From Patescibacteria group bacterium AH-259-L05 (GTDB lineage: Bacteria > Patescibacteriota > Patescibacteriia > UBA2591 > UBA6264), in assembly GCA_027717985.1 (NCBI GenBank), contig JALLOO010000004.1, positions 1-62,586 on the forward strand: a stretch of 62,586 nucleotides of DNA, in the 5' to 3' direction. Shown one piece after another: positions 3,876-26,977 of this stretch (the first letter of the stretch is position 1; each line of letters starts with the position of its first letter). The notes below the pieces were generated by a model. It was given only the letters and a program-made list of their open reading frames with translations, did not search any database and was not told the DNA's origin. Both the position numbers and the translations under genes were made by a program.

Positions 3876-3939
3876 CAATGCCTCCTTTAATAGTCTACAA
3901 TGAACATCTTTTTATATAATAACCCTAAAACACAAATGA

Positions 3940-4016: not shown

Positions 4017-4022
4017 AATATC

Positions 4023-5924: not shown

Positions 5925-5933
5925 TCACAACTA

Positions 5934-5963
5934 AAAATGTCCTGAAACGTTTCAGGACATTTT
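5934..5963. terminator. Bidirectional terminator / perfect palindrome
   Basis: AAAATGTCCTGAAAC-GTTTCAGGACATTTT between convergent fadE and fadA. Confidence 0.75.
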
Positions 5964-5968
5964 GTTTT

Positions 5969-7195
5969 TTAATACAGGAGTTTAAAAATTGCCGCTGCGC
6001 CCATACCGAGTCCAATACACATCGTTACCATAAGGTACTGACTATTTCTTCTTCGCGCTTCATTGATTCCTTTAATGGTAAGGTACGCACCAGTACATCC
6101 TAACGGATGGCCTAGTGCAATTGCACCGCCGTTAACATTTAATCGATCCAGTGGCATCTCAATTCCTTTTTCACTCTTTAACCGTTTAATCACCGAAATT
6201 ACCTGAGAGGCAAATGCTTCGTTTAATTCAATCAAATCTATATCATCCATAGTCAAGTGAGCGCTTCTCAAGGCCCTATCAATCGCATTCACCGGCCCAA
6301 TGCCAAAGATCTCAGGAGATACACCAGTAACCTTATAAGTGACAAGCCGAGCTAAGGGCTCTAACCCCGTACGCTCTGCCTCATCTAAGGTCATTATCAG
6401 TACTGCTGCTGCGCCATCACTCTTCTGTGATGAATTCCCTGCCGTAACGGTACCTGTGCCATCTATCTTAAAAACTGGTGGTAACTGCGCTAAGACTTCG
6501 AGCGATGTATCTTTGCGCGGGCACTCATCAATTTTTGCCTCGGATTCTTCAACGACCCTATTTCCTGATACATCAAGAGATACGTTTCGTACTGGGTAAG
6601 GCAGAATTTCAGATTTAAATTTATTTTCCTCTAATGCTTTCAGCGCTTTTTGATGAGAGTGAAAAGCAAATTCATCTTGCTCTTCTCGAGTACTGCTATC
6701 TTGTTTGGCTAAAACTTCCGCGCCTAATCCCATTGACGTATAGGTTTCTTCTTGTTCTTTCGCCAGATACGGATTCGGCGCATATCGGGTTCCGCCCATG
6801 GGAACCATAGACATACTTTCTACACCACCGGCAATAGCAACCGTTTCTAGTCCTACCGCAATATCTGTTATCTTATCAACAATAGCCTGAAGACCAGAAG
6901 AACAAAAACGATTAATCGTAGCACCCGGTATTTCAACAGGCAAACCAGCTCTTAATACTGCCACCCGAGCTACATCCATCCCTTGTTCTGACTCGGGAAA
7001 CGAACATCCAAGTCTCACATCTTCAACCGTATACGGATCAATTCCTGTACTCTCTACTATTCCTTTAAACACATGAGCGGCAAGATCATCAGGACGGGTA
7101 TTTTTAAAAACACCTCTGTTTGCTTTTCCAATTGCGGTACGGTATCCAGCAACAATAACTACGTCTTTCAATAAGTTTCTTTGATCCTTATTCAT
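5969..7195 (-). CDS. fadA: Acetyl-CoA C-acyltransferase (3-ketoacyl-CoA thiolase)
   Basis: INRFCSSGL, NEAFA, GGAIALGHPLGCTG, MCIGLGMG catalytic motifs. Confidence 0.96.
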   Translation of the reverse strand: MNKDQRNLLKDVVIVAGYRTAIGKANRGVFKNTRPDDLAAHVFKGIVESTGIDPYTVEDVRLGCSFPESEQGMDVARVAVLRAGLPVEIPGATINRFCSSGLQAIVDKITDIAVGLETVAIAGGVESMSMVPMGGTRYAPNPYLAKEQEETYTSMGLGAEVLAKQDSSTREEQDEFAFHSHQKALKALEENKFKSEILPYPVRNVSLDVSGNRVVEESEAKIDECPRKDTSLEVLAQLPPVFKIDGTGTVTAGNSSQKSDGAAAVLIMTLDEAERTGLEPLARLVTYKVTGVSPEIFGIGPVNAIDRALRSAHLTMDDIDLIELNEAFASQVISVIKRLKSEKGIEMPLDRLNVNGGAIALGHPLGCTGAYLTIKGINEARRRNSQYLMVTMCIGLGMGAAAIFKLLY

Positions 7196-9705
7196 TTTCT
7201 GCCTCCTTTCTTTAAAACATTTAATCGAGAAAGTGTATTTTTTGCTTTGAGTCCCAGTCCTAACATTTTTAATGATTTGATGCTTTTACCAATTCGATTC
7301 GCGATTCGTTCAAGCGTTTGATCTTGTGTGGCCAAAAACATCATTGCCTCACGTTCGCGATCAAGGACCACTTGCTCTGAAACGCGCTCGGGTTCACTTA
7401 AATCTCCACCAGTTAAGACTTTAACAATTTGAGTTGCAATCACCTCATCATATTCACCAATCACTCCTCCTTCTCTCATCAAGTAAAGTCCGGATTTGAG
7501 TGCACTGTAGAGTCGCTCGCCATATAGTATTACGCTTTGCTGTCGTGGAGGCTGATAATTTCTAGACAAGGTGAGTACCAATTGCTTTGCTTCGGCAATC
7601 AAGCGGTCTTTATTCATAACAATCACATCACTCTCTCTTAAATATCCTAGTTCTTTAGCTTCAAACGCTGAGGTAGATACTTTTGCCATACCAATAGTCA
7701 TTAGTGTCCTTTGGATAAATGGTAAGGGATCAAATTCGCGCTTGAGTCCTAAATCATGAGGGACATTCTCAAAGGTTCTCAATAACATTTCTTTTGTTCC
7801 ACCTCCGGCAGGAATTAAACCAACTGCAACCTCGACAAGACCCATATAGGTTTCATGTGCTGCGCACACCATATCGGCATGAAGACATACTTCGCTTCCG
7901 CCGCCAAACGTAACACCAAACGGTGCTGCGACTACCGGCTTGGGCATATATTTTAATGCCATATTCGCGTCCTGAAACTCCTTTAAAAAACGCTCAACTT
8001 TATCTTCCTTTCCTTCAAGCAGTGTCTTGACAATTAATTTCAGATTTGCGCCTGCGGAAAAATGCTCGCCATTATTACCAATTACCAATCCTTTGCATGC
8101 ATCATTTGTGCTTGCCTCTTCTGCCGCAGTATACATCATAGAAATGGCATCTAAACCAATCGTATTCATTTTTGAATGAAACTCCAAGCACCACACGCCG
8201 TCTCGCATGTCAATCAAGCTTGCCTCACTGTTCTCTTCAATAACATGTCCTGTATCTTTTAGGTCTTTGAGAATAATAACCCCTTCTGGTCTGTTTAATT
8301 TCTCATACTGTCTGTTATTACAACCAAAAAAGTATGTTGTTCCATTTTCGCTAAAATAAAATGACTTACGCTTGGTCTTTAACACATCGTTAGCAAGTGC
8401 GGGAACTGGTTGTTTATTTTTCTCTAAGAGCTTAACTACTTCAGATACACCTAAGGCATCCCAGATTTCAAACGGGCCTAACTCCCATAAAAATCCTTTT
8501 TTCATGGATAGATCAACGGCAACAATATCATCAGCAACTTCAGACACATATTCAGCTGCATGAGATAAAGTGGATAAAAGCGTTTTTTGAAGATATGATG
8601 CTACGCGGTCTTCCCCATTGATAAGAAACTTGATTCGCTGGGCAGTATCTATGATCTTTTTCCCTTGCTTAATGCTTTTGAACTTTGGCTTTTTCCGCGG
8701 ATGATACTCCAGGGTTTGAGGATCAACAGCCAGTATTTTACTCTTTTGTCCTTCTCGCTTGATTTTTTCATAAAATCCTTTTCCTGCCTTTTGTCCGATC
8801 CATCCGTTAGCAACCAATTGATTGACAAACTCAGGAAGAACCAGTGTTTCTTTATAAAAGTCGTCGGGAAGCGCTTCATGAAGATTGTTTACCACGCTGG
8901 CGACTATATCAATTCCCACCACATCAAGAGTGCGAAAGGTTGCACTCTTAGGCCAACCAATGGCCTTGCCCGTAATCGTGTCAACCTCTTCAATACTATA
9001 GCCATCTTCTATCATTGCAGAGATATTCTTTACTACGCCAGGGATCGCAATACGATTGGCAATAAAGCCAGGAACATCATGCGCAATAACTACGGTTTTA
9101 CCAAGTCTTTGATCACAAAAATCACTGATATACGCCAACACTTCTTTACTGGTCTCATTCGTAGGAATCATCTCTACAATAGCCTGATAGCGCGGGGGGT
9201 TAAAAAAGTGTGTTCCTAAAAAATTCTTGCGTAGATCATCAGGTAATACTTGAGCTAACGTAACCAAGGGAATTCCTGACGTATTTGAACTAATAATGGT
9301 ATCGGGGGAAACTATATCAGCTACCTGACGGAAAAGTTTATGTTTAATATCTACCTTTTCAACCACTGCCTCTATAACCCAATCTACGTCCTTTAGTTTT
9401 TCAAGATCGTCATTCCACTCAACATTTTCAAGTTTTTCTCGCGAATCACTAAAACTGCCAATCTCGATCAATTTGGCAAATTCAGACAACGCAAATGGGG
9501 TCGGATTTAACGACTTTGCCATTGCCAGTCCTTTGAGCACAAGAGAATTTCTATTTGCTGCATCTTCGAGTTCATCACTATCAAACTCCCAGTCAGGAAT
9601 CACATCTAAAAGTAACACGTCGCATCCGGCATTAACAAGATGGGCAGCAATTTGGCTTCCCATCACACCAGCGCCTAACACACCGACTTTTCTGATACTT
9701 GTCAT
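7192..9705 (-). CDS. 3-hydroxyacyl-CoA dehydrogenase / enoyl-CoA hydratase (FadN-type domain order)
   Basis: GAGVMG Rossmann motif, SNTSGI, HFFNPP, GFIANR; C-terminal crotonase FSAGANL, GGGSE, GLVEVAVGLIPAGGG; ATGA overlap with thiolase. Confidence 0.95.
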   Translation of the reverse strand: MTSIRKVGVLGAGVMGSQIAAHLVNAGCDVLLLDVIPDWEFDSDELEDAANRNSLVLKGLAMAKSLNPTPFALSEFAKLIEIGSFSDSREKLENVEWNDDLEKLKDVDWVIEAVVEKVDIKHKLFRQVADIVSPDTIISSNTSGIPLVTLAQVLPDDLRKNFLGTHFFNPPRYQAIVEMIPTNETSKEVLAYISDFCDQRLGKTVVIAHDVPGFIANRIAIPGVVKNISAMIEDGYSIEEVDTITGKAIGWPKSATFRTLDVVGIDIVASVVNNLHEALPDDFYKETLVLPEFVNQLVANGWIGQKAGKGFYEKIKREGQKSKILAVDPQTLEYHPRKKPKFKSIKQGKKIIDTAQRIKFLINGEDRVASYLQKTLLSTLSHAAEYVSEVADDIVAVDLSMKKGFLWELGPFEIWDALGVSEVVKLLEKNKQPVPALANDVLKTKRKSFYFSENGTTYFFGCNNRQYEKLNRPEGVIILKDLKDTGHVIEENSEASLIDMRDGVWCLEFHSKMNTIGLDAISMMYTAAEEASTNDACKGLVIGNNGEHFSAGANLKLIVKTLLEGKEDKVERFLKEFQDANMALKYMPKPVVAAPFGVTFGGGSEVCLHADMVCAAHETYMGLVEVAVGLIPAGGGTKEMLLRTFENVPHDLGLKREFDPLPFIQRTLMTIGMAKVSTSAFEAKELGYLRESDVIVMNKDRLIAEAKQLVLTLSRNYQPPRQQSVILYGERLYSALKSGLYLMREGGVIGEYDEVIATQIVKVLTGGDLSEPERVSEQVVLDREREAMMFLATQDQTLERIANRIGKSIKSLKMLGLGLKAKNTLSRLNVLKKGGRK

Positions 9706-11656: not shown

Positions 11657-11729
11657 CGCGGGGTAGAGCAATTGGCAGCTCGCCAGGCCCATAACCTGGA
11701 GGTTGAGGGTTCGAGTCCCTCCCCCGCAA
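11657..11729 (+). tRNA. tRNA-fMet(CAT), initiator
   Basis: C1:A72 mismatch (CGCGGGG...CCCCGCA-A), anticodon arm CCAGG-CCCATAA-CCTGG, T arm GAGGG-TTCGAGT-CCCTC. Confidence 0.92.
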
Positions 11730-11767
11730 TATGGCCCTTCATTGCCTAAAGCAATGGAGGGCAACTT

Positions 11768-11839
11768 GGCAGGGTAGCTCAGCGGTAGAGCACCAGTATC
11801 ATAAACTGGCCGTCACGGGTTCAAATCCCGTCCCTGCTA
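11768..11839 (+). tRNA. tRNA with CAT anticodon (probably elongator Met; Ile2 not excluded)
   Basis: GGCAGGG/CCCTGCT acceptor, CCAGT-ATCATAA-ACTGG anticodon arm, ACGGG-TTCAAAT-CCCGT T arm. Confidence 0.9.
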
Positions 11840-11984
11840 CTCTCAAAAAAGCGAGATCATTGCCTCGCTTTTTTGGTTGGGGAAAAGTGGTGTTGACAAG
11901 AACGAACATTTGTGTTATAATGGACAATGAAAGTGAAAGAGAGGTTCTTTCATAAATATCACTCCAAACAAAAGGGAGGAAAAC

Positions 11985-12360: not shown

Positions 12361-13605
12361 TTATTTGCAGCCGTCTTTTTTTATCAGTTTTTTCCAAGTC
12401 ATTGCTGGTATGTAATTCTCTAAAATTTCAATAAAATCTTGTACAAGTGTCGGGCCGCTCAATGTTTTCATCAATCTCCCGTCTACAAATATCGGAGCTT
12501 TCGGATCTTCTCCCGTGCCAGGCAATGAGATTCCAATATCAGCATGTTTTGACTCGCCTGGTCCATTTACCACACATCCCATAACTGCAATATTTAAATC
12601 TTCAACGCCTGGATATCTTTCTTTCCATTGCGGCATTTGTTTTGCAATATATGTGGTAATCTCCTCTGCCATTGCCATAAAAAAGGTGCTGGTTGTGCGT
12701 CCACATCCTGGACACGCAGCAACTGAAAGCATAAAATTTCGTATGCCCAGTGATTGAAGCACATGCTGGCATATATATACCTCTGTTGTGCGATCCTCGT
12801 CTGGGGCAGGGGTTAGTGAAGCTCGAATCGTATCCCCTATTCCTTCCGAGAGCAAACAGGTCAATGCCGCAGTTATGGCAACAATACCTTGTAAGCCCAT
12901 ACCAGCCTCGGTGAGCCCGATATGAAGCGGATAATCACAGCGGCTCGCAAGTACCCGATTAACGGTAACAACATCTGAAACTGACGAAAGTTTTGCGCTC
13001 ACCACAATTTTATTATGAGCAAATCCGAGTTTTTCTGCCTGCTGTGCTGATTCTAATACACTTTCTACCACCGCATCCAAGAGCACCGTATGGGAATCCT
13101 GTGGACTCTGACGTTTTGCATTTTCATCCATGAGACGCGTCAAAAGCTGTTGATCAATTGATCCCCAGTTCACCCCAATGCGTACGGGCTTATTGTTTTT
13201 GATCGCAACCTCGATGATCTGTTGAAAATGCGGATCACGGTTCTTGCCCGCACCAACATTTCCTGGATTAATACGGTACTTATCTAAAGTCTTCGCACAT
13301 TCAGGAAAATCACGCAATAAAATATGTCCGTTATAATGAAAATCGCCGATTAAAGGCACATCTATATCCTGATCTATTAATGCCTTTTTTATCTCTGACA
13401 CCGTTGCTGCGGCTTGCTTGGTATTTACGGTAATACGCACCAACTCAGACCCTGCTTCAAAAAGCTCTCTTATCTGCTTAACCGTAGATTTAACATCTGC
13501 CGTATCAGTATTGGTCATTGATTGAACCCGTATCGGGTTATCTCCACCAATACCAACATCACCGACCATAACAACTTGAGAAACGCGTCTTGTATATGTA
13601 TTCAT
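12361..13605 (-). CDS. ispG: (E)-4-hydroxy-3-methylbut-2-enyl-diphosphate synthase, [4Fe-4S]
   Basis: [44 protein letters not shown]. Confidence 0.97.
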
Positions 13606-14555
13606 TTCCTCTTCCTCTCTGCTTCTTTTCGAAGCCGTTTTAAGGCAGGAGAAGCAAAAGTTATATCTTCATCTATGCCTTGAAGCTCCTCAATATCATC
13701 TGCGCCAAACTCTCGAAGCTTATCAACTACCGCTTGGAGTATACGCTCTGGCGTTGATGCTCCTGAACTTACCCCTATTACGTTCTTATCTTTTAATTGA
13801 TCTTTGTTCAAACCATTCGCATCCTCAATAAAATAGGTGGGAACACCGCAGGAAACAGCAACCTCAAACAAACGATTGGTATTAGAACTCCTCTCTTGAG
13901 ATCCGACAATATATATGATATCAGAAACCTTTGCAAGATTTTTTACTGCATCCTGTCTATACTGTGTTGCATAGCAGATATCTGAAGTCTGTGGCCCTAT
14001 AATAGGGGGGAAACGTTTTTTAAGAGTCTGGATTATCTCTTTGGTCTCATCAACACTCAGAGTTGTCTGTGTTACGTACGCTACTTTTAATGGATTAGAA
14101 ACAACAACACGTTCTGCTTCCTCAACTGACCCTACTACAACCACGTGATCAGGTGCCTCACCCGTCACCCCTATTTCCTCAGGATGTCCTTCGTGGGCAA
14201 TATAAATAATAGTATAATCATCTCGTGCCCAACGCTTAACTTCAAGGTGAACCTTGAGTACCAAGGGACACGTTGCATCAAGAATATCCAGATACTTTTC
14301 ACGCGCTTCATCCCATACGGTTGGCGCTACGCCATGAGCACGTAACACTACTTTTGCTCCTCGCGGTATATGTTTGATTTCCTCAACAAATACAGCTCCT
14401 TTTTGTGCCAATGGCTCAATCGCATGTCTATTATGAACAATCCAGCCATATACATAAACTGGCGAACCATACACTTTAAGCGCAAGATCTACTACCTCAA
14501 TTGCCTGATCAACACCTGCACACGGACCTTGTGGTTTTGCTAATTTAACTTGCAT
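13602..14555 (-). CDS. ispH: 4-hydroxy-3-methylbut-2-enyl diphosphate reductase, [4Fe-4S]
   Basis: GPCAGV, IVHN, AHG, DATCPLV, QTT, ICYAT, SSN, GASTP; start at the SD-preceded ATG 14555. Confidence 0.96.
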
Positions 14556-14703
14556 GGAATCCTCCTTTCTCAATGATCTAATTCCTACATACCATATCAA
14601 AAATATGATATGGTGTCAATGCTCTTGACAAAAACTTTGATTTGTGGCAGACTATATACAAAGTTCATTCACATACATAAACCAAACAATCAAGGAGGAA
14701 CAC

Positions 14704-16636: not shown

Positions 16637-17052
16637 TATTCGCCTACTACTTTAACAATTAAAGTCCTCTCACGAGATCGGTTATCAAAATCGCATAGTA
16701 CAACATTCTCCCACGTACCTAAGGTCATTTTACCTTTGCTGATCGGAACAGCTAACGATGGTCCGATTAAACTGGCGCGCAGATGTGAAAATCCATTATC
16801 ATCGCCCCAGGTTGCACCATGGTGATACTGTTTATTCTTTGGTATAATCTTTTCTAACAATTCTTCAAAATCTTTAACTAAATTCGGCTCATGTTCAATC
16901 GTAGTAATCGCCGAGGTCGAGCTCGTACTAAAAACCACGACAATCCCCTCTTTTATTTTGGAATCAGATACAATATCACTAACGCGATCGGTTATATCAA
17001 CAACATCGCAAAACCCTTTGGTTGAAACACTGATTTCTTCTTGATATGTCAT
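16636..17052 (-). CDS. YjbQ/UPF0047 family protein
   Basis: HHG-x3-DDNGFSHLRASL, LGTWE-x-V-x-CDFD. Confidence 0.9.
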   Translation of the reverse strand: MTYQEEISVSTKGFCDVVDITDRVSDIVSDSKIKEGIVVVFSTSSTSAITTIEHEPNLVKDFEELLEKIIPKNKQYHHGATWGDDNGFSHLRASLIGPSLAVPISKGKMTLGTWENVVLCDFDNRSRERTLIVKVVGE

Positions 17053-17116
17053 ATATATTAGTCTATTATAAAAATAAACACTTAACAACTGGTATTTTCT
17101 TTGATACAATCATACC

Positions 17117-17434
17117 ATGGCAAAAATAACTAAACAACACATTATCAAAGCTCTTCAGCAATGTATTGATCCTGAACTTCGCATTGATATATGGAGCTTA
17201 GGGTTAATTTATGACATTCGTATAAAAACGAAAGATAAACAAACCATTGTTGATATTACGGCGACCTTAACCACGCCTGCATGCGCGCTTGGCCCTCATA
17301 TCTTACAAGACATTACCACTAACGTAGAAAAAATATCTGGTGTTAAACAATGCAATGTGGTCATTACCTTTGAGCCGCGCTGGACGCCAGAGAAAATGAC
17401 TGAAGAAGCAAAAGCACAATTAGGATTTTTATAA
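17117..17434 (+). CDS. DUF59 (SufT/PaaD-like) metal-sulfur cluster assembly factor
   Basis: DPEL-x-IDI-x2-LGLIY, TLTTPAC, EPRWT. Confidence 0.9.
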   Translation: MAKITKQHIIKALQQCIDPELRIDIWSLGLIYDIRIKTKDKQTIVDITATLTTPACALGPHILQDITTNVEKISGVKQCNVVITFEPRWTPEKMTEEAKAQLGFL

Positions 17435-17502
17435 AGGTCTTGACACTTTTAGCCAATTCTTCTATACTACTAAGGTAACTAACAAATAAAAGGAGAAACA
17501 CT

Positions 17503-18357
17503 ATGGCACAATCGAAAAGTAACGTACTCACGGTCAATTACCAATCAAAAGATGCTCCGCAAACGTTTGTACGATCACTGAAAAGTACTGGCTTTGCGGT
17601 TATCTCAAATCATGGAATTAAACACTCGCTGATTACCAAAGTATATAATGAATGGAAAAAATTCTTTGCAAGCACGGCAAAACATGACTATTTGCGTGAT
17701 AAAGGAAAACAGGCTGGCTATTTCCCTTTTCTCTCTGAAAATGCAAAAGGATATTCTAAAAAGGATCTGAAAGAATTCTATCACTTCTATCTCTGGGGAC
17801 GATTGCCGAAAGGAATGAGCAACGCCACGAAAAAACTGTTTAAGCAATTGGTCGCGTGCGCTGCAACGCTTCTTCAATGGACAGAAGAACAAACACCTGA
17901 AACTGTACGATCGCAATTTTCTATGCCACTTCCTGAAATGATCAAGGGGAGCAACCGAAATCTCCTCAGAATTATCCACTATCCGCCGCTCACCGGGAAA
18001 GAAGAGGAAGGCACGGTACGAGCAGCTGCCCATGAAGATATTAATCTTTTGACCGTACTCGTTGCGGGAACACAAATCGGACTTCAGGCACAAGATCTTG
18101 AAGGAAACTGGCATATGGTCTCCTGTGACCCGGGAATGCTGGTGGTAAATGCTGGTGATATGCTCAAAATGTGCTCAGGCGGCTATTATCCCTCAACCAA
18201 ACACCGTGTTATCAATCCAACAGGTGAAGATGCAAAAAAATCTCGATATTCTATGCCGCTCTTCCTCCATCCGCGTGATGAGGTCAGACTTTCCAAGACC
18301 CATACAGCCAAGAGTTATCTATTAGAACGGCTGGAAGAAATTGGCTTGAAAAAATAA
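17503..18357 (+). CDS. 2-oxoglutarate/Fe(II) oxygenase, isopenicillin N synthase family
   Basis: HEDINL (HxD), NAGDML, HRV, RYS motifs. Confidence 0.92.
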   Translation: MAQSKSNVLTVNYQSKDAPQTFVRSLKSTGFAVISNHGIKHSLITKVYNEWKKFFASTAKHDYLRDKGKQAGYFPFLSENAKGYSKKDLKEFYHFYLWGRLPKGMSNATKKLFKQLVACAATLLQWTEEQTPETVRSQFSMPLPEMIKGSNRNLLRIIHYPPLTGKEEEGTVRAAAHEDINLLTVLVAGTQIGLQAQDLEGNWHMVSCDPGMLVVNAGDMLKMCSGGYYPSTKHRVINPTGEDAKKSRYSMPLFLHPRDEVRLSKTHTAKSYLLERLEEIGLKK

Positions 18358-18486
18358 AGTACTAAAATAAAAAAGAAATAAAAAAGACTCTGATTACTAT
18401 ATCAGAGTTTTTTTCTTGACGTAGGTAGGTGTATATGCTATACTAAATCTGTTCTTTTCAAAAACATCAACAGGGAGGTAGTAACG

Positions 18487-19032
18487 ATGAAAAGTAATGA
18501 AGTTGTTACCTTGCGTCGTGATTGTGAAGGAACATTGATTCCTGCAGGCACTAAAGTTGCTCTCAGGAAAGGTCACGAGGTGAGAATCACCCAATCGCTT
18601 GGAGGAAACTATACAGTAGTTATCCATGATAATATGGTACGTATTGATAGCAAAGATGCTGATGCGCTTGGAAAAGAACCTATAAGTTCATCAAAGGGCA
18701 TCAAGCTAACAGGTAATAGAACGATTGAGGAATTAGTATGGGAACAGATGAAAACGTGCTATGATCCTGAAATTCCGGTCAACATTGTTGATCTCGGCCT
18801 CATCTACTCTTGTGAAATCAAACAGTTGTCAGACCACGGAAACAAGGTAGAGATAAAAATGACACTAACCGCTCCTGGCTGCGGCATGGGAAATATTATT
18901 GCGGATGAGGTTAAGAATAAGGTTCTATCCATACCTGGTGTTACCGAAGCAAGTGTAGAGCTGGTCTGGGATCCGCAATGGAATCAAAGTATGATGTCTG
19001 AAACAGCTAAACTTCAACTCGGGATGTTATAA
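18487..19032 (+). CDS. sufT: Long-form SufT Fe-S cluster assembly protein
   Basis: N-terminal QSLGGNYT domain plus DPEIPVNIVDLGLIY, TLTAPGCGMG, WDPQW. Confidence 0.9.
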   Translation: MKSNEVVTLRRDCEGTLIPAGTKVALRKGHEVRITQSLGGNYTVVIHDNMVRIDSKDADALGKEPISSSKGIKLTGNRTIEELVWEQMKTCYDPEIPVNIVDLGLIYSCEIKQLSDHGNKVEIKMTLTAPGCGMGNIIADEVKNKVLSIPGVTEASVELVWDPQWNQSMMSETAKLQLGML

Positions 19033-19056
19033 CAATTCAAACATATTGCTCTGATA

Positions 19057-19099
19057 TCCACACAACCTCCTCTTGATTTTTTTCACTATGTGTGCTATA
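19057..19099 (+). repeat. 43-bp promoter module, copy 1 (identical to 20124-20166)
   Basis: TCCACACAACCTCCTCTTGATTTTTTTCACTATGTGTGCTATA, containing TTGATT-N17-TATA. Confidence 0.9.
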
Positions 19100-19142
19100 G
19101 TATTACTGCTCTTTAAAACCAAAACATGAAAGGGAAAAAATA

Positions 19143-20054
19143 ATGAGTAATAAAAAGAAGAAAACCGCTGGCAAGCCTCAAGTCACGATATCTCCAAAGG
19201 ATTACAAGGGAAAGGTTAATCCAGATTGGTGTGTCGGATGTGGAGATTTTGGTGTCTTGAACGCCTTTCAAAAGGCGTGTTCAGAACTTGGACTCCCGTC
19301 CCATAAGATTCTAGTGGTTAGTGGTATCGGCTGTTCCTCAAATTTCCCTGGATTTTTCAACTCCTACGGTATGCATACACTTCATGGCCGTCCCCTCCCC
19401 GTGGCCACAGGCGCTAAACTTGCCAATCATGAACTGACCGTAATCGTTACTGCCGGTGACGGAGATGGTTATGGGATTGGTGGTAACCATTTTACACACA
19501 CTGCGCGTCGAAATATTGATCTCACCTACCTGGTCATGAACAACCAGATCTACGGACTCACCACCGGCCAGATATCTCCCACGAGTCGTATGGGAATGAA
19601 GACCAAGAGCACGCCATACGGAAGCGTGGAATTACCCGTTAACCCCCTTACGTTAGCTATCATGGGCGGAGCCACCTTTGTGGCTCGAGCCTACAGTAGT
19701 GAGGGCAGCTACTTCGTAAACCTTATAAAACAGGCAATTCAGCATAAAGGCTTTTCCTTTATTGATATATTCAGCCCTTGCGTCACCTATAATCACGAGA
19801 ATACTCATACATTCTTTAAGCAACGGATAAAGCACTTGGAAGACGAGGGTCACGACCCCACTGACTGGAAAACAGCATGCGAGAAGGCCATGATCTGGGG
19901 GGATGAAATCTATACCGGGCTCTTCTTACAAAACACAGAGAGACGGACACTTGAGCAATTGGAACCGATTCTTGACAAAGGAGGACCTCTTGCACATCGG
20001 TCACTCGGCCTTACTGAAGCGCAGTCTTCAAAAATCATTGAGAAGCTAATGTAG
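19143..20054 (+). CDS. korB: 2-oxoacid:ferredoxin oxidoreductase beta subunit
   Basis: WCVGCGD, SGIGCSS, LHGR, GDGD TPP motif, NNQIYGLTTGQ, SPCVTYN. Confidence 0.93.
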   Translation: MSNKKKKTAGKPQVTISPKDYKGKVNPDWCVGCGDFGVLNAFQKACSELGLPSHKILVVSGIGCSSNFPGFFNSYGMHTLHGRPLPVATGAKLANHELTVIVTAGDGDGYGIGGNHFTHTARRNIDLTYLVMNNQIYGLTTGQISPTSRMGMKTKSTPYGSVELPVNPLTLAIMGGATFVARAYSSEGSYFVNLIKQAIQHKGFSFIDIFSPCVTYNHENTHTFFKQRIKHLEDEGHDPTDWKTACEKAMIWGDEIYTGLFLQNTERRTLEQLEPILDKGGPLAHRSLGLTEAQSSKIIEKLM

Positions 20055-20123
20055 GGAGAGAGTAGGATTTAGAATAAACCCCGCTTCAGCTAAAACTGAT
20101 GGCGGGGTTTTCCTTTTTACTTG

Positions 20124-20166
20124 TCCACACAACCTCCTCTTGATTTTTTTCACTATGTGTGCTATA
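20124..20166 (+). repeat. 43-bp promoter module, copy 2
   Basis: Exact match to 19057-19099. Confidence 0.9.
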
Positions 20167-20235
20167 CTATATGTGCTCTTTGAAAACTGGCTCACCTCGT
20201 ATGAGGCGAACCACAAAATATAAGGAGGTTATGTC

Positions 20236-20550
20236 ATGACCTTTATTATCACTGAACCATGTATTGGCGTGTGTGATACTGCATGTGTGGATGTATGCCC
20301 GGTTGATTGTATTCATTTTGACGTGGACGAGAAAGATGCCGGACAAAAAATGAAAGAAATGAAAGCAGCAGATCCGAATGTGGACCTAGAAAAACTTCAG
20401 CTGTTTATTGATCCTGAAGAATGTATTGACTGCGCTGCATGTGAACCAGAGTGTCCGGTAGAAGCCATCTTTCCCGAAGATGAAGTCCCTGATGTATGGA
20501 AAGACTTTATTAAGATGAACTATGAGGCCTTTGGTCAAGAGGCCCCGTAA
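20236..20550 (+). CDS. Dicluster ferredoxin (FdxA-like)
   Basis: CIGVCDTACVDVCPVDC and CIDCAACEPECP. Confidence 0.93.
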   Translation: MTFIITEPCIGVCDTACVDVCPVDCIHFDVDEKDAGQKMKEMKAADPNVDLEKLQLFIDPEECIDCAACEPECPVEAIFPEDEVPDVWKDFIKMNYEAFGQEAP

Positions 20551-20897
20551 TGGTAAAAAAGAAAGCTCATTCACACTATAAGGATGTGCCTGAATGCGTT
20601 GATAAAATTGGTACCAAGAAAAAAAGACCACGGCTTATGGCAGTGGTTGACGAAGATAGCTGCACCGGATGTCAGGTATGTATTCCATTTTGTCCTGTTG
20701 ACTGTATTGAAACGGTCCCGTATGAAAAGTACGATATCCCTATCCCGCCGGTTCAAATCAGATTTGATGAATGTATTGGATGTCAAATCTGCGCACGGGT
20801 ATGCACTAAGCTTACCTGGGACGCCATTCGGATGATTCCCACAGACGAATTTGAACAAACCTATGGTATTAAAATATCTGATAAAGGCCCGCAATAA
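20550..20897 (+). CDS. 2x[4Fe-4S] ferredoxin-like protein
   Basis: CTGCQVCIPFCP and CIGCQICARVC; TAATG coupling to the upstream ferredoxin. Confidence 0.9.
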   Translation: MVKKKAHSHYKDVPECVDKIGTKKKRPRLMAVVDEDSCTGCQVCIPFCPVDCIETVPYEKYDIPIPPVQIRFDECIGCQICARVCTKLTWDAIRMIPTDEFEQTYGIKISDKGPQ

Positions 20898-20987
20898 AAT
20901 AAAACTATTGTGAGGCCTTTTCTTTTTTTAATACTGTGCTATACTGTGTATAGATTCTTTGAAAACAAATATGAAAGGAGATAACAA

Positions 20988-21521
20988 ATGGCAAAAGATG
21001 GATCTGGTAATATAATTGTTGCGCCTCTCAATAAACTTCTGAATTGGGCTCGCTCAACCTCGCCCTGGTATTTCCAGTTCGGTTTAGCGTGCTGTGCGAT
21101 TGAGATGATGGCAACGGCTGCCTCCCGACACGATTTAGAACGTATTGGTATGATGCCTCGCTCCTCGCCCCGCCAGGCAGATGTTATGATTGTTGCCGGA
21201 ACGGTTACCATGAAAATGGCGCTTCGAATAAAACGGCTGTACGAACAAATGGCAGAGCCAAAATATGTGGTCTCTATGGGGAGCTGCGCTACCAGCGGCG
21301 GCCCGTACTGGCAGTATGGGTATCATGTGCTCAAGGGTGTTGATTTGGTAATTCCCGTTGATGTGTATGTTCCTGGTTGTCCACCACGGCCTGAACAGCT
21401 TATTGAAGGTCTTCTGCGGTTGCAGGAAAAAATTCAAAAAGAACGACCAGTTCAGGAAATAATTGTGCCCAACATCAAGGAAATACTCAAGAAAAAGAAA
21501 AACAAGGAGAAAAAAAAATGA
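20988..21521 (+). CDS. nuoB: NADH-quinone oxidoreductase subunit B
   Basis: [35 protein letters not shown] (N2 cluster ligands). Confidence 0.95.
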
Positions 21522-22090
21522 ATGGGGTAAAACAATATTTTACAAATATCTGGCAAGCGATAACCACCCTCTCTGCAGGTATGCGCGTTACTATGAGGCA
21601 TTTACTCCATGCTCGCAAAGGAATTGTCACTCTTCAATATCCTGAAGAACGCTGGCCTCGACCTGAAAGAAATATTGGATTCCCAGAACAAGACTATAAT
21701 GTGATTCGCTCACGTCTGCATGTTGATATGGATGACTGTATTGGATGCTTAAAATGTGAGCGGGTATGTCCAGTTGATTGCATCAAAATTGAAACCGTTA
21801 AAGTTGATAAAGGTGTTGATATTCCTGATGCTGGCCATACGGGTATCACCTCACACGGAACACAGAAACGACTGCTCGTTACCCGATTTGATATTGATAT
21901 GACCGAATGCTGCTACTGTAATCTCTGTGTATATCCTTGTCCGGAAGAGTGTATTTATATGGTGGGCGGCCCGAATGCTGACAAATATCCTCTAGATTAT
22001 GAATTTTCAGAATACGATAGGGCTGACATGATCTACCGATTTGCAAAACCAGAAACTAAACCATGGGCAAAAGAGAATCTGCCTGAATAA
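21518..22090 (+). CDS. nuoI: NADH-quinone oxidoreductase subunit I
   Basis: [38 protein letters not shown]. Confidence 0.9.
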
Positions 22091-22092
22091 TA

Positions 22093-22124
22093 AAAACCCT
22101 GTATCAAACCGATATCAGGGTTTT
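22093..22124 (+). terminator. Intrinsic terminator, same family as 24113-24148 and about 18382-18413
   Basis: AAAACCCTG-TATCAAACCGATAT-CAGGGTTTT. Confidence 0.75.
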
Positions 22125-22189
22125 CTTTTTTTTATACTATGGTATACTAAACCTGTTCTTTTGAAATCTAAGAATGGAGGGGAAAATCT

Positions 22190-22549
22190 ATGACAAAAAC
22201 GAAAGAAAAAACTCAAGAACCAATCCTTGAAGGAGTTACCCTAACTGAACAAGCTGCCCAACAGATTAAGAAGGTAAAAAAAGAAGATGAGGGAGAATAC
22301 CTTCGCGCATCAGTAACTGGGGGTGGATGTTCTGGCCTAAACTATCAACTTACCTGGGATAGTACGCTCAACGAATTTGATAAACAATTCGAAAGTCACG
22401 GCATTACCATTGTCGTGGATCTGAAATCTCTGCTCTACCTCAAAGGCATGGAAATTGATTACTCCACTGATATGCTCTCGGGAGGATTTCAATTCAGAAA
22501 TCCTAATGCCACAAGAACATGCGGTTGCGGAACATCATTTTCCGTATAA
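22190..22549 (+). CDS. iscA: A-type Fe-S carrier (IscA/SufA/ErpA, HesB family)
   Basis: GGGCSG, NPNA-x-TCGCGTSF. Confidence 0.93.
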   Translation: MTKTKEKTQEPILEGVTLTEQAAQQIKKVKKEDEGEYLRASVTGGGCSGLNYQLTWDSTLNEFDKQFESHGITIVVDLKSLLYLKGMEIDYSTDMLSGGFQFRNPNATRTCGCGTSFSV

Positions 22550-22654
22550 AAATAGAAAGAAAAGTCCCTTACAATCAGGGGCTTTCTTTTTTTATATAGT
22601 ATGCTATACTATTATATATGTTCTTTAGAATCTATAATATAAGGAGATACACTC

Positions 22655-24106
22655 ATGCGTACCACGAAAAAACAAGCACAAGCGTTAGCAGAAGAACAAG
22701 AACAATACAAATATGGATTTGTTACTGATATTGAAGAAGAAAGCATTCCTGCCGGACTTAATGAAGATATTATTCGACTGATCTCTCTAAAAAAGAACGA
22801 GCCTGAGTTTATGTTACAATGGCGGCTCAAGGCCTATCAAAGGTGGTTGAAAATGAAAGAACCAACATGGGCAAACGTCAAATACCCCAAAATTGACTAT
22901 CAACGTATTGTCTACTACGCTGCGCCAAAGCAGCAAAAACAACTCCAAAACCTTGACGAAGTTGACCCAGAACTCCTGAAAACCTATGAAAAACTCGGTA
23001 TTCCCTTAGAAGAACGAAAACGACTTTCTGGTGTAGCGGTGGATGCAATTTTTGACAGTGTCTCGGTCGCCACAACGTTTAAACAAGAACTTGAAAAACA
23101 CGGTGTTATTTTTTGCGCTTTTTCTGAGGCAGTTGAAAAACATCCTGATTTGATTAAACAATACCTTGGTTCAGTCGTCCCGTATAATGACAACTTTTTT
23201 GCAACACTTAACTCAGCAGTATTTAGTGATGGATCATTTTGTTACATTCCTAAAGGGGTACGCTGTCCTATGGAGCTCTCAACATATTTCCGTATGAATG
23301 CAGCAATGGCTGGTCAGTTTGAACGAACCCTTATTATTGCTGAAGAAGATAGTTATGTAAGCTATTTAGAAGGATGCTCAGCGCCGATGCGAGATGAAAA
23401 TCAGCTCCACGCTGCGGTGGTTGAATTAATTGCACTCAAAAATGCTGAAATCAAATACTCGACCATTCAAAACTGGTATCCCGGCGATAAGAAAGGAAAA
23501 GGAGGCATTTATAACTTTGTTACCAAGCGCGGTATCTGTCGAGGCGACAATGCTAAAATTTCTTGGACACAAGTTGAAACCGGATCTGCGATTACCTGGA
23601 AATATCCAAGCGTGATTCTCAAAGGGAACAATACCACGGGAGAATTTTTTTCAGTCGCACTTACCAATAACTATCAGCAAGCAGATACCGGAACCAAGAT
23701 GATACATATTGGAAAAAATACTAAAAGCACGATCATTTCCAAAGGCATCTCAGCCGGTCATGGACAAAACACCTACCGCGGCAAAGTACAAATCATGAAA
23801 GGTGCACATAACGCACGTAATTACTCTCAGTGTGATTCAATTCTTATCGGCGACAAGTGTGGTGCACACACTTTCCCCTATATTGATGTTCGAAATCCAA
23901 CCGCGCAAATGGAACATGAAGCATCAACTTCAAATATTGGTGATGATCAACTATTCTACTGTGCGCAACGCGGCATTAGTACTGAAGATGCAGTTAACAT
24001 GATTGTCAATGGATTTTCTAAAGAAGTATTTCGCGAATTACCTATGGAATTTGCAGTCGAAGCCCAACGGCTTCTTGAAGTGAGTATGGAAGGGAGTATT
24101 GGATAA
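22655..24106 (+). CDS. sufB: Fe-S cluster assembly scaffold SufB
   Basis: [52 protein letters not shown]. Confidence 0.97.
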
Positions 24107-24112
24107 AAAAAT

Positions 24113-24148
24113 AAAAAACCCTGAATCAAAATGATATCAGGGTTTTTT
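24113..24148. terminator. Bidirectional terminator closing the Fe-S array
   Basis: AAAAAACCCTG-AATCAAAATGATAT-CAGGGTTTTTT. Confidence 0.8.
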
Positions 24149-24155
24149 GAAAAAA

Positions 24156-24542
24156 CTATTTAAAAAAATATTCGACCCACAACTTAATATTAGAATTCTT
24201 TTTACCAAAATAATTATTATTTACACCAGAGCTTTCCCGCTCGTCGTCATCTTCAAGTATGACAACGACCTCCTCACCTGGCTTTGATAGACCAAACTTA
24301 AGCCGGGCTTGTTTTTCCTTGTAGTATTCAGTCTTTCTTTTTAACAGCTCGTCAATTAACTCTTGGTTCTCTGCCTCAAGTGTTTGAATTCGTACTTCTT
24401 TTCGTACTAATTCTTTTTTCAAAGACAAACGGTACGTAATTTCACGGCCCAATGAAACAAGACCAAAAATCAAAAGCAAAATTAATACATATGAAAATGT
24501 TTTTGAAGAAATAACTCGCTTTAAAAATGATGATTTTGTCAT
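24156..24542 (-). CDS. Septum formation initiator (FtsB/DivIC family)
   Basis: One TM helix, coiled coil, EKQARLKFGLSKPGE motif. Confidence 0.8.
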   Translation of the reverse strand: MTKSSFLKRVISSKTFSYVLILLLIFGLVSLGREITYRLSLKKELVRKEVRIQTLEAENQELIDELLKRKTEYYKEKQARLKFGLSKPGEEVVVILEDDDERESSGVNNNYFGKKNSNIKLWVEYFFK

Positions 24543-24620
24543 ATTATTTTCAAGTGAGTGAGTGAAATGCAAAAATTTGTATTTTTGCATTTCCGAACGA
24601 ACGCAGGAAACAAGGTTCCC

Positions 24621-26435
24621 TTATTTTTTTATAATTTCCCAATATGCCTCAGGAGGAATATTAACCTTGCCTAATTTTACTAATTTTTTCTTTCCTTTTT
24701 TTTGCTTTGCTAATAATTTCTTTTTCCGGGTTACATCACCACCGTAGAGCTTTGCCGTTACATCCTTGCGCAATGGCGGAATTCTTTCTGATGCTAAAAT
24801 CCTTCCTCCTATTGCTGCTTGAATCTTAACCTCAAACAACTGCCGCGGTAAAATCTGTTTTAATTTTTTAACAACGTTTCGCCCCTCTCTATACGCCTCA
24901 TCTTTATATACCATACTCGACAGCTGATCAACCGGCTCTCCTGCTACTAAAATATCACGCTTAACGACGTCAGCTGATCTATATTCTAAAAACTGATAAC
25001 TATATGAAGCATATCCCTGGCTCACGCTTTTTAGCTCATCATAAAAACCAGTCAAAAGCAAAAATAAGGGCATATGATAATGAAGGAGCGCTCGCTGATA
25101 TAAATCTTTATCTGCTCCGCCAATATATTCTAAAGATATAAATTTAACTCGCTTCTCTTTTTGCCCGCCAATATTTGAGAGCCAATCCATAATTGAACCA
25201 ATATATGCTTTTGGTGTAATAATATCTATCTTCATCCATGGCTCTTCAATATATGAGATAGTGCTTGGGTCAGGAAGCTCAAGCGGAGAATGAACAACCT
25301 CATACTCATCATCCCCTTTTTTAAACACATGATATGCAACGCTGGGGGTTGATATAATGATTTCAAGATCATACTCTCGTTTGAGCCGTTCGCGCACAAT
25401 ATCCATATGCAGTAACCCTAAAAACCCGGCACGAAACCCAAAACCAAGTGCAGGAGAATGCATAGCCTCATATATCAAACTCGCATCATTTAACTTAAGC
25501 CTTGCCAAACCTTGGCGCAGATTTCCTTTATCAGTTCCTGCTTTTGGATAAAGGCCGGCAAATACTACTTGCTGCGGTGTGACATATCCTGCTAATGGTT
25601 TAATTGACTGATTGTTATGTGCAATCGTATCGCCAACCCGGCATTTTTCAATATCTTTTAATCCCGTGATAATATAGCCTATCTCTCCTGCTTCTAAGAC
25701 ATCTTTCTTTTTCAGATCCGGTGAAAAAATACCAACTTCTTGAACCTCAGAAAATGCATTGCTTGCTAAAAAGGTAATGTTTTCTTCTGATCTCACGTTG
25801 CCATCAAATATGCGTACATACGCAATCACGCCTTTGTATTCATCAAAGTATGAATCAAAAATAAGAGCCCGAAATGGGCTTTTTATATTATCTGGAGGCG
25901 GCGGAACCTTATCAACAATAGTTGCTAAAACGTCCTCAACTCCAGTCCCCTCTTTTGCTGAAATACAGATAATTTCTTTCTCACGTATTTTTAAAAGATT
26001 CGCAAGCTCTTTTTTTCTCTCATCAATATCAATATTTTCTAAATCAATCTTATTAATCACCGGAATAATAACTAAATTCTGTTTTTGTGCTAAATATAAA
26101 TTCGCCAAGGTTTGTGCCTGAATCCCTTGGCTTGCATCAACTAATAAAATGGCACCCTCGACTGCTGCTAATGAGCGCGAAACTTCATAGGAAAAATCAA
26201 CATGACCAGGAGTATCGATCAGGTTCAGAACATAATCCTTCCACATCATAGTGGCTGGTTGAAGCTTAATCGTAATCCCTCGCTCTCGCTCAAGCGGCAT
26301 TCTATCAAGATATTGCGGCTCCATTTTTTCTTTAGGGACAGTTTTGGTTAATTCTAAAAACCTATCAGCTAAAGTTGATTTTCCATGGTCCACGTGAGAA
26401 ATAATACAGAAATTTCGAATGCTTGAACTCGCCAT
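24621..26435 (-). CDS. lepA: Translation elongation factor 4
   Basis: HVDHGKST, ERERGITIK, DTPGH, GFLGLLH, DVTAKLYGGDVTRK. Confidence 0.98.
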   Translation of the reverse strand: MASSSIRNFCIISHVDHGKSTLADRFLELTKTVPKEKMEPQYLDRMPLERERGITIKLQPATMMWKDYVLNLIDTPGHVDFSYEVSRSLAAVEGAILLVDASQGIQAQTLANLYLAQKQNLVIIPVINKIDLENIDIDERKKELANLLKIREKEIICISAKEGTGVEDVLATIVDKVPPPPDNIKSPFRALIFDSYFDEYKGVIAYVRIFDGNVRSEENITFLASNAFSEVQEVGIFSPDLKKKDVLEAGEIGYIITGLKDIEKCRVGDTIAHNNQSIKPLAGYVTPQQVVFAGLYPKAGTDKGNLRQGLARLKLNDASLIYEAMHSPALGFGFRAGFLGLLHMDIVRERLKREYDLEIIISTPSVAYHVFKKGDDEYEVVHSPLELPDPSTISYIEEPWMKIDIITPKAYIGSIMDWLSNIGGQKEKRVKFISLEYIGGADKDLYQRALLHYHMPLFLLLTGFYDELKSVSQGYASYSYQFLEYRSADVVKRDILVAGEPVDQLSSMVYKDEAYREGRNVVKKLKQILPRQLFEVKIQAAIGGRILASERIPPLRKDVTAKLYGGDVTRKKKLLAKQKKGKKKLVKLGKVNIPPEAYWEIIKK

Positions 26436-26512: not shown

Positions 26513-26977
26513 CTAATCATCTTGAAGCTCCTGTCGTATTTTGTACAACATCCGTATGAATTTACGAGCTGGCAGTGAAGTATGTGGTGATTCAGGATGG
26601 CCAAGATTATGCGTCAATGTTGCATCTCTGGTTGAAACAAGTGCTTTTCGGGCTCGATTACTTTGTGTAAACTTAGCCCTCAATGCTCTTTCAATCAGTG
26701 CAAAATGCTCTGGCGAACGAAAACCGAATTCCTGGCCCTGCCACCAAACCTTTTGTTTATGACGAATCCGCCTGTTAGCTTTCTTTCCCTTGAATTTTGC
26801 TGCTCTGCCAACAAGGCTGCAAACATGTGTTTGCATCTCAGGATTTGGAAACTTCAAAGCCTGAATAAAACCTTCAGCAGAAGCGCACTCAACTCCGTCA
26901 ATCACAAATGGAGTCGCAGCAAAATTCGAAAGAACATTAGCCGCCCATCCACCTTTGCTTCCAATATTAATTGCCAT
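26513..26977 (-). CDS. NADAR family protein (YbiA / T4 gp30.3-like)
   Basis: LSNF-x3-PF-x-IDGVECASAEGFIQALKF, RAKFTQ, LTH. Confidence 0.7.
   Translation of the reverse strand: MAINIGSKGGWAANVLSNFAATPFVIDGVECASAEGFIQALKFPNPEMQTHVCSLVGRAAKFKGKKANRRIRHKQKVWWQGQEFGFRSPEHFALIERALRAKFTQSNRARKALVSTRDATLTHNLGHPESPHTSLPARKFIRMLYKIRQELQDD

Follow-up and report, generated by a model that had tools for sequence, protein, structure and literature searches.

What brings iron-sulfur (Fe-S) subunits of unrelated protein complexes together at one locus of a small bacterial genome, and what would they do there apart from their usual partners? The question is raised by a stretch of 62,586 nucleotides of Patescibacteria group bacterium AH-259-L05, called the window below, which is one whole contig (C34) of an assembly (G000) of 1,033,454 bases in 63 contigs, rated 77.5% complete. 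Ten intact open reading frames (ORFs) lie on the plus strand at 17117-24106; they form eight units with spacers of 68-181 nt, and two gene pairs overlap (Fdx1-Fdx2 and NuoB-NuoI). Judged by similarity and phylogeny, most of them are best regarded as xenologs from a lineage of the Fibrobacteres-Chlorobi-Bacteroidetes (FCB) group labelled Marinimicrobia, set between native flanks. We consider it an even bet that they now form a domesticated kit that supplies the cell's own enzymes with Fe-S maturation and low-potential electron carriers. An earlier description of the locus, the sequence-only reading, had listed ten consecutive plus-strand genes that bind or handle iron or Fe-S clusters. All ten ORFs are there, with their families confirmed by Pfam and NCBIfam:

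17117..17434, plus strand: DUF59, a short SufT-like Fe-S assembly protein, 105 aa (PF01883, 48.8 bits, cut-off 23.5)
17503..18357, plus strand: 2-oxoglutarate (2OG)-Fe(II) oxygenase, 284 aa (PF03171, 2OG-FeII_Oxy, and PF14226, DIOX_N; 64.3 and 48.1 bits)
18487..19032, plus strand: long SufT, 181 aa (TIGR03406, 250.4 bits, cut-off 202.6)
19143..20054, plus strand: KorB, beta subunit of a two-subunit 2-oxoacid:ferredoxin oxidoreductase (OFOR), without a cognate alpha subunit (TIGR02177, 341.6 bits, cut-off 261.9)
20236..20550, plus strand: ferredoxin 1 (Fdx1), FdxA-like, 104 aa (Fer4 families)
20550..20897, plus strand: ferredoxin 2 (Fdx2), PorD/RnfB-like, 115 aa, with two [4Fe-4S] motifs; its start overlaps the end of Fdx1 (Fer4_21, 48.2 bits)
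20988..21521, plus strand: NuoB (PSST, the N2-cluster subunit of complex I) with a Lys-rich C-terminal tail (TIGR01957, 227.8 bits, cut-off 142.7)
21518..22090, plus strand: NuoI (TYKY, the N6a-N6b subunit), overlapping nuoB by 4 nt (TIGR01971, 64.1 bits, below the cut-off of 113.05)
22190..22549, plus strand: IscA/ErpA-type A-type carrier, 119 aa (TIGR00049, 123 bits, cut-off 58.8)
22655..24106, plus strand: SufB of the E. coli/FCB type, 483 aa, the second sufB of the genome (NF008773, 912.2 bits, cut-off 717)

The array itself holds, as had been noted, no korA, no sufC, sufD or sufS and no other nuo gene among its ORFs. Its cofactor motifs, described earlier as intact, were confirmed by alignment for NuoB, NuoI, KorB and SufB. 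NuoB keeps its four Cys (CC...C...C) and 58 of the 59 columns that are at least 90% conserved among 80 reference NuoB sequences; the NuoB of a second species of the genus (G001, about 75% complete and, like G000, derived from a metagenome) keeps 59/59. Both CxxCxxCxxxCP motifs of NuoI, with all eight Cys, are retained together with 17/17 conserved columns (48 references). These columns, its 79% identity to the in-operon NuoI of the donor-like genome G171 and its place in the same tree group identify it with good reason as NuoI, despite the score below the family cut-off. KorB aligns over its full length with its best solved relative, 6n2n_B (260.5 bits), keeping the Cys and the GDG/NN thiamine pyrophosphate (TPP) motifs. 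SufB, aligned to E. coli SufB 5awf_A (694.8 bits), keeps the key residues C254, C405, H433 and E434. The best solved relative of the 2OG oxygenase is 3on7_A, an 'iron/ascorbate family oxidoreductase' (306.5 bits).

The recipient genome is of the Candidate Phyla Radiation (CPR) type, since the genomes of 40 relatives from the same family or order span 0.5-1.4 Mb, most being over 90% complete, and ribosomal protein L30 (PF00327) was matched in 0/55 genomes of the order against 13/14 control genomes; a small genome and the absence of L30 are hallmarks of the CPR. The genome of this genus is larger than those of its relatives. The closest relatives of most array genes lie elsewhere, in two genomes labelled Marinimicrobia by their submitters, G041 and G171, the latter picked out of a 121-genome sample of the Marinimicrobia-labelled phylum. 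The best NuoB match of the species-representative scan, at 87% identity, was a locus of G041 (L024), where nuoB stands inside a nuoABCDHIJKLMN operon; the NuoI of G041 is 65% identical to that of the array. G171 is closer than G041 for most array genes: identity reaches 90.6% for NuoB (to a stand-alone nuoB), 82% for Fdx2 (also to a stand-alone gene), 81% for SufB (80% to G041), 70% for KorB (the next best in the 121-genome sample being at most 52%), 65-69% for Fdx1 and 60% for SufT, the last with the same value for G041. The array IscA is 54% identical to the iscA preceding sufB in G041, and DUF59 shares 48% identity with the leading structural gene of the suf operon in G041. No match to the 2OG oxygenase was found in the loci fetched from G171, G041 and G042, a further FCB genome.

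The resemblance of NuoB and NuoI to FCB sequences, noted by eye in the sequence-only reading, holds in the trees. In the NuoB tree the group (G171,(window,G001)) has support 95 and lies among FCB rows, L024/L140 being its sister. The NuoI tree places the window and G001 with G171, L140 and L024 in a set of five rows, support 99. The flanks behave otherwise: the neighbouring LepA is 66% identical to proteins of same-family and same-order genomes, against 49% to G041 and G042. DNA-level matches to G171 show the same boundary, with 12 across the 7.2-kb array, touching 8/10 genes, none over 17.1 kb upstream and, over 19.9 kb downstream, two short ones. SufB and KorB of the array type were found in no genome of the recipient's order apart from G000 and G001, the remaining members having 42-50% identity or no match.

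The genes had not been thought to come as one transferred operon, and the donor-like genomes bear this out: homologues of the array genes occupy at least five different contigs of G171 and four of G041, which makes it unlikely that a genome of this kind passed them on in a single block. G041 has a nine-gene suf operon, in which a Rrf2-like gene is followed by DUF59, iscA, sufB, sufC, sufD, sufE, sufT and sufS. G171 has sufB-sufC-sufD...sufT-sufS, a korA-korB pair in which korB is directly 3' of a 606-aa korA, and a nuoA-C-D-H-I-J-K-L-M-N operon, the matching nuoB standing alone on another contig. G171 also carries a second, divergent nuoA-B-C-D set after the nuo operon (L245, G171:C46; L246, G171:C71). 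The recipient kept NuoB, NuoI, KorB, SufB, IscA, SufT, DUF59 and two ferredoxins, while donor-type KorA, SufC, SufD, SufE and further Nuo subunits are absent. NuoI is thus the sole gene retained from the G171-type nuo operon, KorB was kept without the adjacent KorA, and DUF59, IscA, SufB and SufT without SufC, SufD and SufE. Capture by cofactor rather than by pathway, as first proposed, describes this outcome in part: the kept genes are mostly cluster-binding or cluster-handling members of their sets, and most array genes are indeed Fe-S genes, but the 2OG oxygenase of G000 and a sufS found at the G001 locus break the pattern.

Are these subunits orphans? For KorB and SufB the label does not stand. 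A search of the whole genome, in which the discovery of partner subunits had been named beforehand as refuting the idea, found a native korA (625 aa) and korB (286 aa) on contig C12, adjoined by an FNR-like reductase gene, and a native sufC-sufB-sufD-sufS operon on C8. The native SufB is encoded by an 831-aa ORF (G000:C8:9201-11696, minus strand) whose halves are split by an insert matching intein-bearing proteins. The array KorB is 47% identical to the native C12 copy and the array SufB 42-43% to the C8 copy; the native sufC, sufD and sufS products are 40-41% identical to the donor type. The only POR_N match in G000 is the native korA on C12, and a G171-type KorA matches that gene alone, at 30% identity. 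Since native korAB and sufC-B-D-S exist elsewhere, the array KorB and SufB are not true orphans but second, foreign copies. The label holds for NuoB and NuoI, for which no other nuo gene was found: with the L024 and G171 operon sets as queries, tblastn found nothing in G000 for NuoA, C, D, H, J, K, L, M or N, and PF00346 and PF00361 had no match in G000 or G001, the control G041 being positive for PF00346. As NuoD and the membrane arm were not found, NuoB-NuoI would not be part of a complex I here. A NiFe-hydrogenase large subunit was considered as a partner of NuoB and rejected (PF00374, 0/2 genomes, G000 and G001). Apart from the array genes, G000 gave no homologue of IscA, SufT or DUF59.

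How are the foreign pieces expressed? Each unit had been described as led by its own promoter, in a layout of eight units, and both points gain support from the spacers, the overlapping pairs, a shared predicted promoter module and hairpins with U tracts that resemble terminators. Six units (sufT, korB, fdx1-fdx2, nuoB-nuoI, iscA and sufB) share one duplicated module, conserved in G001. Its parts are a U-tract hairpin, a -35-like hexamer, the extended -10 element TGnTATACT, the box TGYTCTTT and a ribosome-binding site. The predicted elements are:

18416..18462, plus strand: promoter module 5' of sufT (-35 hexamer, TGnTATACT, TGYTCTTT box); repeat family D1, kept in G001
19057..19118, plus strand: promoter module 5' of korB, one copy of a 62-nt repeat; repeat D3, 92% identity to 20124-20185
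20124..20185, plus strand: promoter module 5' of fdx1, the second 62-nt copy; repeat D3, from the pattern search
20918..20983, plus strand: promoter module and leader 5' of nuoB; repeats D4 and D12, from the pattern search, kept in G001
22121..22166, plus strand: promoter module 5' of iscA; repeats D1 and D4, from the pattern search
22583..22649, plus strand: promoter module and leader 5' of sufB; repeats D4 and D12, from the pattern search
20076..20120, plus strand: terminator-like hairpin and U tract 3' of korB (-20.5 kcal/mol, z -5.8)
22091..22134, plus strand: terminator-like hairpin and U tract 3' of nuoI (-14.9 kcal/mol, z -5.1); repeat D10
24108..24152, no strand assigned: terminator-like hairpin 3' of sufB, between convergent genes (-17.5 kcal/mol, z -5.8); repeat D10

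The array hairpins fold at -12.8 to -20.5 kcal/mol with z from -3.5 to -6.2, and the 33-nt terminator stretch after nuoI recurs 3' of sufB at 91% identity (repeat D10). The promoter pattern has 11 distinct sites in G000, six of them in the array, against about 3 in mononucleotide-shuffled genomes; outside the array it marks promoter-like sites on C12, C27, C45 and C47. It did not occur in 120,235 bp of donor-like loci, nor in the regions 5' of the G171 homologues. Because the module is present on other contigs of G000 and absent from the donor-like loci, the foreign genes appear to run on promoters of the recipient's type, copied from unit to unit, which amounts to domestication. A regulon specific to the array was considered and rejected: a narrower composite pattern gave 4/4 of its genome matches in the array, but the broader one also matches the four other contigs, and for that reason the module is better seen as the recipient's strong-promoter type, enriched in the array, than as a private operator. 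A generic promoter scan did no better than chance, with 19 sites where shuffles gave 19.2 +/- 4.7, and the generic promoter/terminator scan missed the bulged hairpins that folding revealed. A search of 16900-24700 against Rfam produced no match at E<=0.1; downstream of the four similar promoters outside the array, its sole result was one tRNA on the opposite strand.

Two other architectures were examined at this point. An integron-like cassette array would show same-strand, single-gene units of mixed origin, as here; it was rejected, the spacer repeats being promoter, leader and terminator modules with no attC-like sites, and no integrase family was found among the 20 flanking ORFs scanned. 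A phage vector carrying an island of auxiliary metabolic genes was likewise rejected: viral contigs, tried with NuoB and KorB only, gave three NuoB relatives of at most 56% identity and no KorB. Separately, at the start of DUF59 (17082-17119) a -10-like TACAAT ends 6 nt before the start codon with no visible ribosome-binding site, and this transcript is possibly leaderless.

The second species shows whether the array is real and whether it is kept. G001 has the same flank and array order on two contigs at 84-89% nucleotide identity to G000. Its locus is without the 2OG gene and the upstream protease, and sufS stands between sufT and korB; this SufS is 65% identical to that of G171, where the sufT-sufS order is the same. 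The content of the locus thus varies between the two species. Contig C123 of G001 also holds, at bases 87-1332 of the reverse-complemented contig, two extra ORFs (240 and 173 aa) just 5' of iscA with no match in G000. Being syntenic in a second species, the array is a real part of the genome. An assembly or binning artefact, either a chimeric contig or an FCB contig placed in the wrong bin, would account for the GC content of 41.7%, mildly raised over the 37.3% of the remaining window, in genomes that both come from metagenomes. We nevertheless find it scarcely credible, as the same native flank and order recur in G001, LepA and other flanking genes are of the recipient type, and the array's promoter module recurs on four further contigs of G000 and is missing from donor-like loci.

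For the nine array genes common to both species, dN/dS is 0.08-0.21 (nuoB 0.086, DUF59 0.14, nuoI 0.148) against 0.11-0.20 for five flanking genes, in a single pairwise estimate between G000 and G001. Neutral decay, named earlier as an outcome that would undo the proposal, is thus contradicted: since the array has the same dN/dS as its flanks, it is under the same purifying-type constraint and does not decay. Synonymous divergence is mosaic, with dS of 1.59 for nuoB, 0.13 for korB and 0.19 for nuoI, and the 3' end of nuoB with its tail is only 48% identical between the species, with gaps. Recombination within the genus or allele replacement is a possible cause. One could see in all this the functionless leftovers of larger transferred operons on their way to loss, for the gene sets are partial, the species differ (2OG oxygenase in G000 only, sufS in G001 only) and dS is uneven between nuoB and korB. 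This explanation is largely refuted, and we hold it most improbable: all shared ORFs are intact in both species with dN/dS equal to that of housekeeping flanks, the cluster ligands are kept, and the units have a conserved promoter, ribosome-binding site and terminator.

What, then, would the retained genes do? G000 has only three ORFs with the motif CxxCxxCxxxC[PGAST], namely Fdx1, Fdx2 and NuoI, and all Fer4_7 matches of G000 and G001 are inside the array, while 52 of the order's 53 other genomes encode their own Fer4 proteins. Candidate users of ferredoxin are at hand, among them a pair of genes 2.5 kb upstream of the array:

12361..14600, minus strand: ispG-ispH pair, possible clients of the array (GcpE 379.3 bits, LYTB 288.1 bits)

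IspG and IspH are [4Fe-4S] enzymes that need ferredoxin or flavodoxin as electron donor. IspG was found in 1/55 genomes of the order, G000 itself, and was not found in G001. Arrival of ispG and ispH in the same transfer was considered and dropped for that lineage; IspG would be a separate gain, because it is only 40-41% identical to the IspG of G171 and G041. That the array provides the sole ferredoxin-motif ORFs, that the genome has no other IscA, SufT or DUF59, and that ferredoxin users are present are the grounds for reading it as a carrier and maturation kit. A stand-alone cluster and electron relay serving IspG and IspH was one of three models first offered for the locus, and it is the one that fits best.

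The analysis shows the origin of the array, its synteny, the selection on it, its intact ligands and the failure to find the other nuo genes; all partner pairings in the scheme that follows, and the direction of electron flow, are what we infer from these observations. On this reading the array is a genus-specific island, assembled from several separately acquired pieces of a Marinimicrobia-type genome. From each donor set the recipient kept chiefly proteins that carry Fe-S clusters or pass them on, and every retained piece has a terminator of its own and one copy of the promoter module of the recipient's type. SufB, IscA, SufT and DUF59, with SufS in G001, may add a cluster-building and delivery branch of E. 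coli/FCB type to the native SufC-B-D-S, whose SufC probably supplies the ATPase for the array SufB. Fdx1 and Fdx2 would be the soluble low-potential electron carriers of the cell, linking the native OFOR and the adjoining FNR-like reductase to Fe-S enzymes such as IspG and IspH. KorB could serve as an alternative beta subunit for the native KorA or have some other role. NuoB-NuoI might form a stand-alone heterodimer with three [4Fe-4S] clusters (N6a-N6b-N2) that exchanges electrons with ferredoxin.

The other two models first offered look outside the cell: an iron or cluster sink directed at a host, or subunits that take a place, as decoys or replacements, in its complex I, OFOR or SUF. A host role for the donor lineage is conceivable, NuoB being 87-91% identical with its former partner-binding core nearly unchanged, and it is the cofactor-binding members of the gene sets that were kept. 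We regard such models as very unlikely and found nothing in their support. No export route or signal was seen, the N-termini aligning by eye (no signal-peptide tool was used) with those of cytoplasmic donor proteins. The location of the genome's only ferredoxin-motif ORFs in the array points to use inside the cell, and assembly factors such as SufT, IscA and DUF59 make little sense as decoys.

Several points weigh against the carrier and maturation kit. Its weak point is NuoB-NuoI as a three-cluster relay that talks to ferredoxin, which is a best guess. We know of no described stand-alone NuoB-NuoI pair, and in complex I the N2 cluster of NuoB sits at the interface with NuoD. The conservation of NuoB in 58/59 near-invariant columns, more than a free carrier would seem to need, hints at a large partner beyond those found. 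Pairing of the array KorB with the native KorA is doubtful, because the active site of OFOR is shared between alpha and beta subunits and the native KorA shares only 30% identity with that of the donor type. FCB origin falls short of being shown for IscA (54%), DUF59 (48%) and the 2OG oxygenase (no match). The pattern of cluster-binding members kept is post hoc, drawn from few events, and not absolute. Finally, DNA missing from the assemblies, which are about 75-77% complete, could hold the absent partners or native ferredoxins.

A bolder form of the proposal has selection acting on the cofactor and not on the pathway. A CPR symbiont would repeatedly have taken up DNA of a Marinimicrobia-type partner, kept only the Fe-S subunits of its complex I, OFOR and SUF and added its own promoters to each, and NuoB-NuoI, possibly with KorB and the ferredoxins, would be a new soluble or membrane-peripheral Fe-S relay. 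A new large partner, or contact with proteins of the donor (host) lineage, would in that case explain why the donor-type surfaces have hardly changed. We think this rather unlikely as a whole.

How rare is the arrangement? That CPR normally lack complex I agrees with our phylum sample, in which NuoB-like genes occur in 16/401 genomes and 385 have no match at E<=1e-15. Within the order NuoB was found in 3/41 genomes (G000, G001 and a 38% match in G038). The best other NuoB of the phylum sample has 57% identity and a nuoA-B-C context, and the rest resemble small subunits of the group-4-hydrogenase type. A search for similar arrays in related genomes, proposed at the outset, found none in the order or phylum sample apart from G001, and the array has no counterpart in 160 loci drawn from genome and metagenome collections, among them the 80 best of the metagenome hits. 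Pairs of NuoB and a small Fer4 protein in L099, L163, L164 and L203 are only 25-30% like NuoI. Among the fetched loci we also observed nuoB beside sufC-sufB-sufD, or sufS/iscA beside nuoB-nuoD-nuoI, in genomes labelled Planctomycetota, Armatimonadota and Chloroflexota (L044, L047, L152, L155-L158; L048, L051, L159; L079; L042), so that proximity of nuoB and SUF genes recurs across several phyla. No description of such an array was found in the literature consulted, including the available text of PMC7304191, PMC12455944 and PMC5220378.

These counts bear on the plainest alternative, in which the partners are merely unassembled or unbinned and the array is the visible part of a working headless complex I and of a cognate FCB-type KorA. 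The evidence base consists of two incomplete metagenome-derived genomes, each lacking about a quarter, so the absence of the nuo partners stays short of proof. In conservation NuoB and NuoI match subunits that belong to intact complexes, and the nuoB of G171 stands apart from its operon, which means that scattered nuo genes occur in the donor lineage. We still judge this alternative quite unlikely. Nine other nuo genes are unmatched in G000 and three marker families (PF00346, PF00361 and PF00374) in G001, so that both genomes would need to miss them independently; the overlapping nuoB-nuoI unit is unlike any full operon among the 160 fetched loci; and the great majority of the sampled phylum has no NuoB-like gene at all.

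Other features of the window and genome touch the array less directly. A set of genes resembling beta-oxidation occupies 3900-9705 of the window, with an acyl-CoA dehydrogenase (674 aa, plus strand), a thiolase (408 aa, minus strand) and a fused 3-hydroxyacyl-CoA dehydrogenase/enoyl-CoA hydratase (837 aa, minus strand); such a set is unusual in so small a genome, and it has no DNA-level match to G171, G041 or G042 except for one 129-nt patch. A VIT1-family protein is encoded at 2498-3367 on the minus strand, its VIT1 match beginning only at residue 137; the N-terminal part before it is what the sequence-only reading took for ferritin-like. Two adjacent tRNA-Met genes lie at 11657-11840, one of which matches the FCB genomes at 80% on the DNA level, no surprise for a tRNA. 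Just past lepA, at 26513-26977 on the minus strand, is a phage GP30.3/NADAR-domain protein. On contig C12 an ORF with a LAGLIDADG-like domain (L119:1246-1899) directly follows the gene for ribosomal protein L19.

The array may represent a previously undescribed, stripped-down kit for carrying electrons and building clusters in a very small, probably symbiotic bacterium. If this is true, lateral transfer into an ultra-small bacterium dismantled multi-subunit machines gene by gene, and the cofactor-bearing parts were retained, given new promoters and held under strong selection. It would also show how a reduced genome may rebuild its supply of ferredoxin and Fe-S maturation from foreign parts. 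An uncultured CPR genus thereby gains a concrete candidate donor, and possibly host, lineage, and a testable biochemical question is raised, namely the activity of NuoB-NuoI without the remaining complex I.

Several known systems offer a comparison. Headless NDH-1, according to the available part of its description, is an 11-subunit complex without NuoEFG in which NuoB and NuoI are the two Fe-S subunits (PMC6560451). The array NuoB and NuoI are orthologues of those of the FCB/Bacteroidota form (nuoABCDHIJKLMN), with 79-91% identity to G171/G041 and 12 cluster Cys kept, whereas the other nine subunits were not found in G000/G001, nuoB-nuoI forms one two-gene unit, and the array NuoB has gained a basic C-terminal tail. 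The array SufB is an equivalog of that of E. coli-type SUF (SufA-SufBC2D-SufSE with SufT/DUF59 helpers), its key residues aligning with those of 5awf_A; iscA precedes sufB as in G041, and sufT and sufS are adjacent in G001 as in G171. The array differs in having no donor-type sufC, sufD, sufE or regulator, in its pieces being rearranged and interleaved with unrelated genes, and in the presence of a separate native suf operon. KorB resembles the beta subunit of solved KorAB enzymes (6n2n, 5b46) over its full length, cluster and TPP motifs included, and its closest relative is the second gene of the G171 korAB. It differs in that no cognate korA was found, the native korA having a korB of its own and being far from the donor type.

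Remnants of complex I in hydrogenosomes, where NuoE and NuoF are kept alone, are a precedent for two redox subunits of this complex working without the rest. They form the NADH-oxidising N-module in a eukaryotic organelle, whereas here the connecting Fe-S subunits NuoB and NuoI stand in a bacterium. In the CPR, traits that are sparse among genomes have been gained by lateral transfer (Jaffe et al. 2020, PMC7304191), and the available text of that study does not mention nuo genes. Compared with the lateral metabolic genes it covers in that text, the present locus is distinguished by single subunits from three multi-subunit systems, instead of entire functional units, each under a new promoter, gathered in one place.

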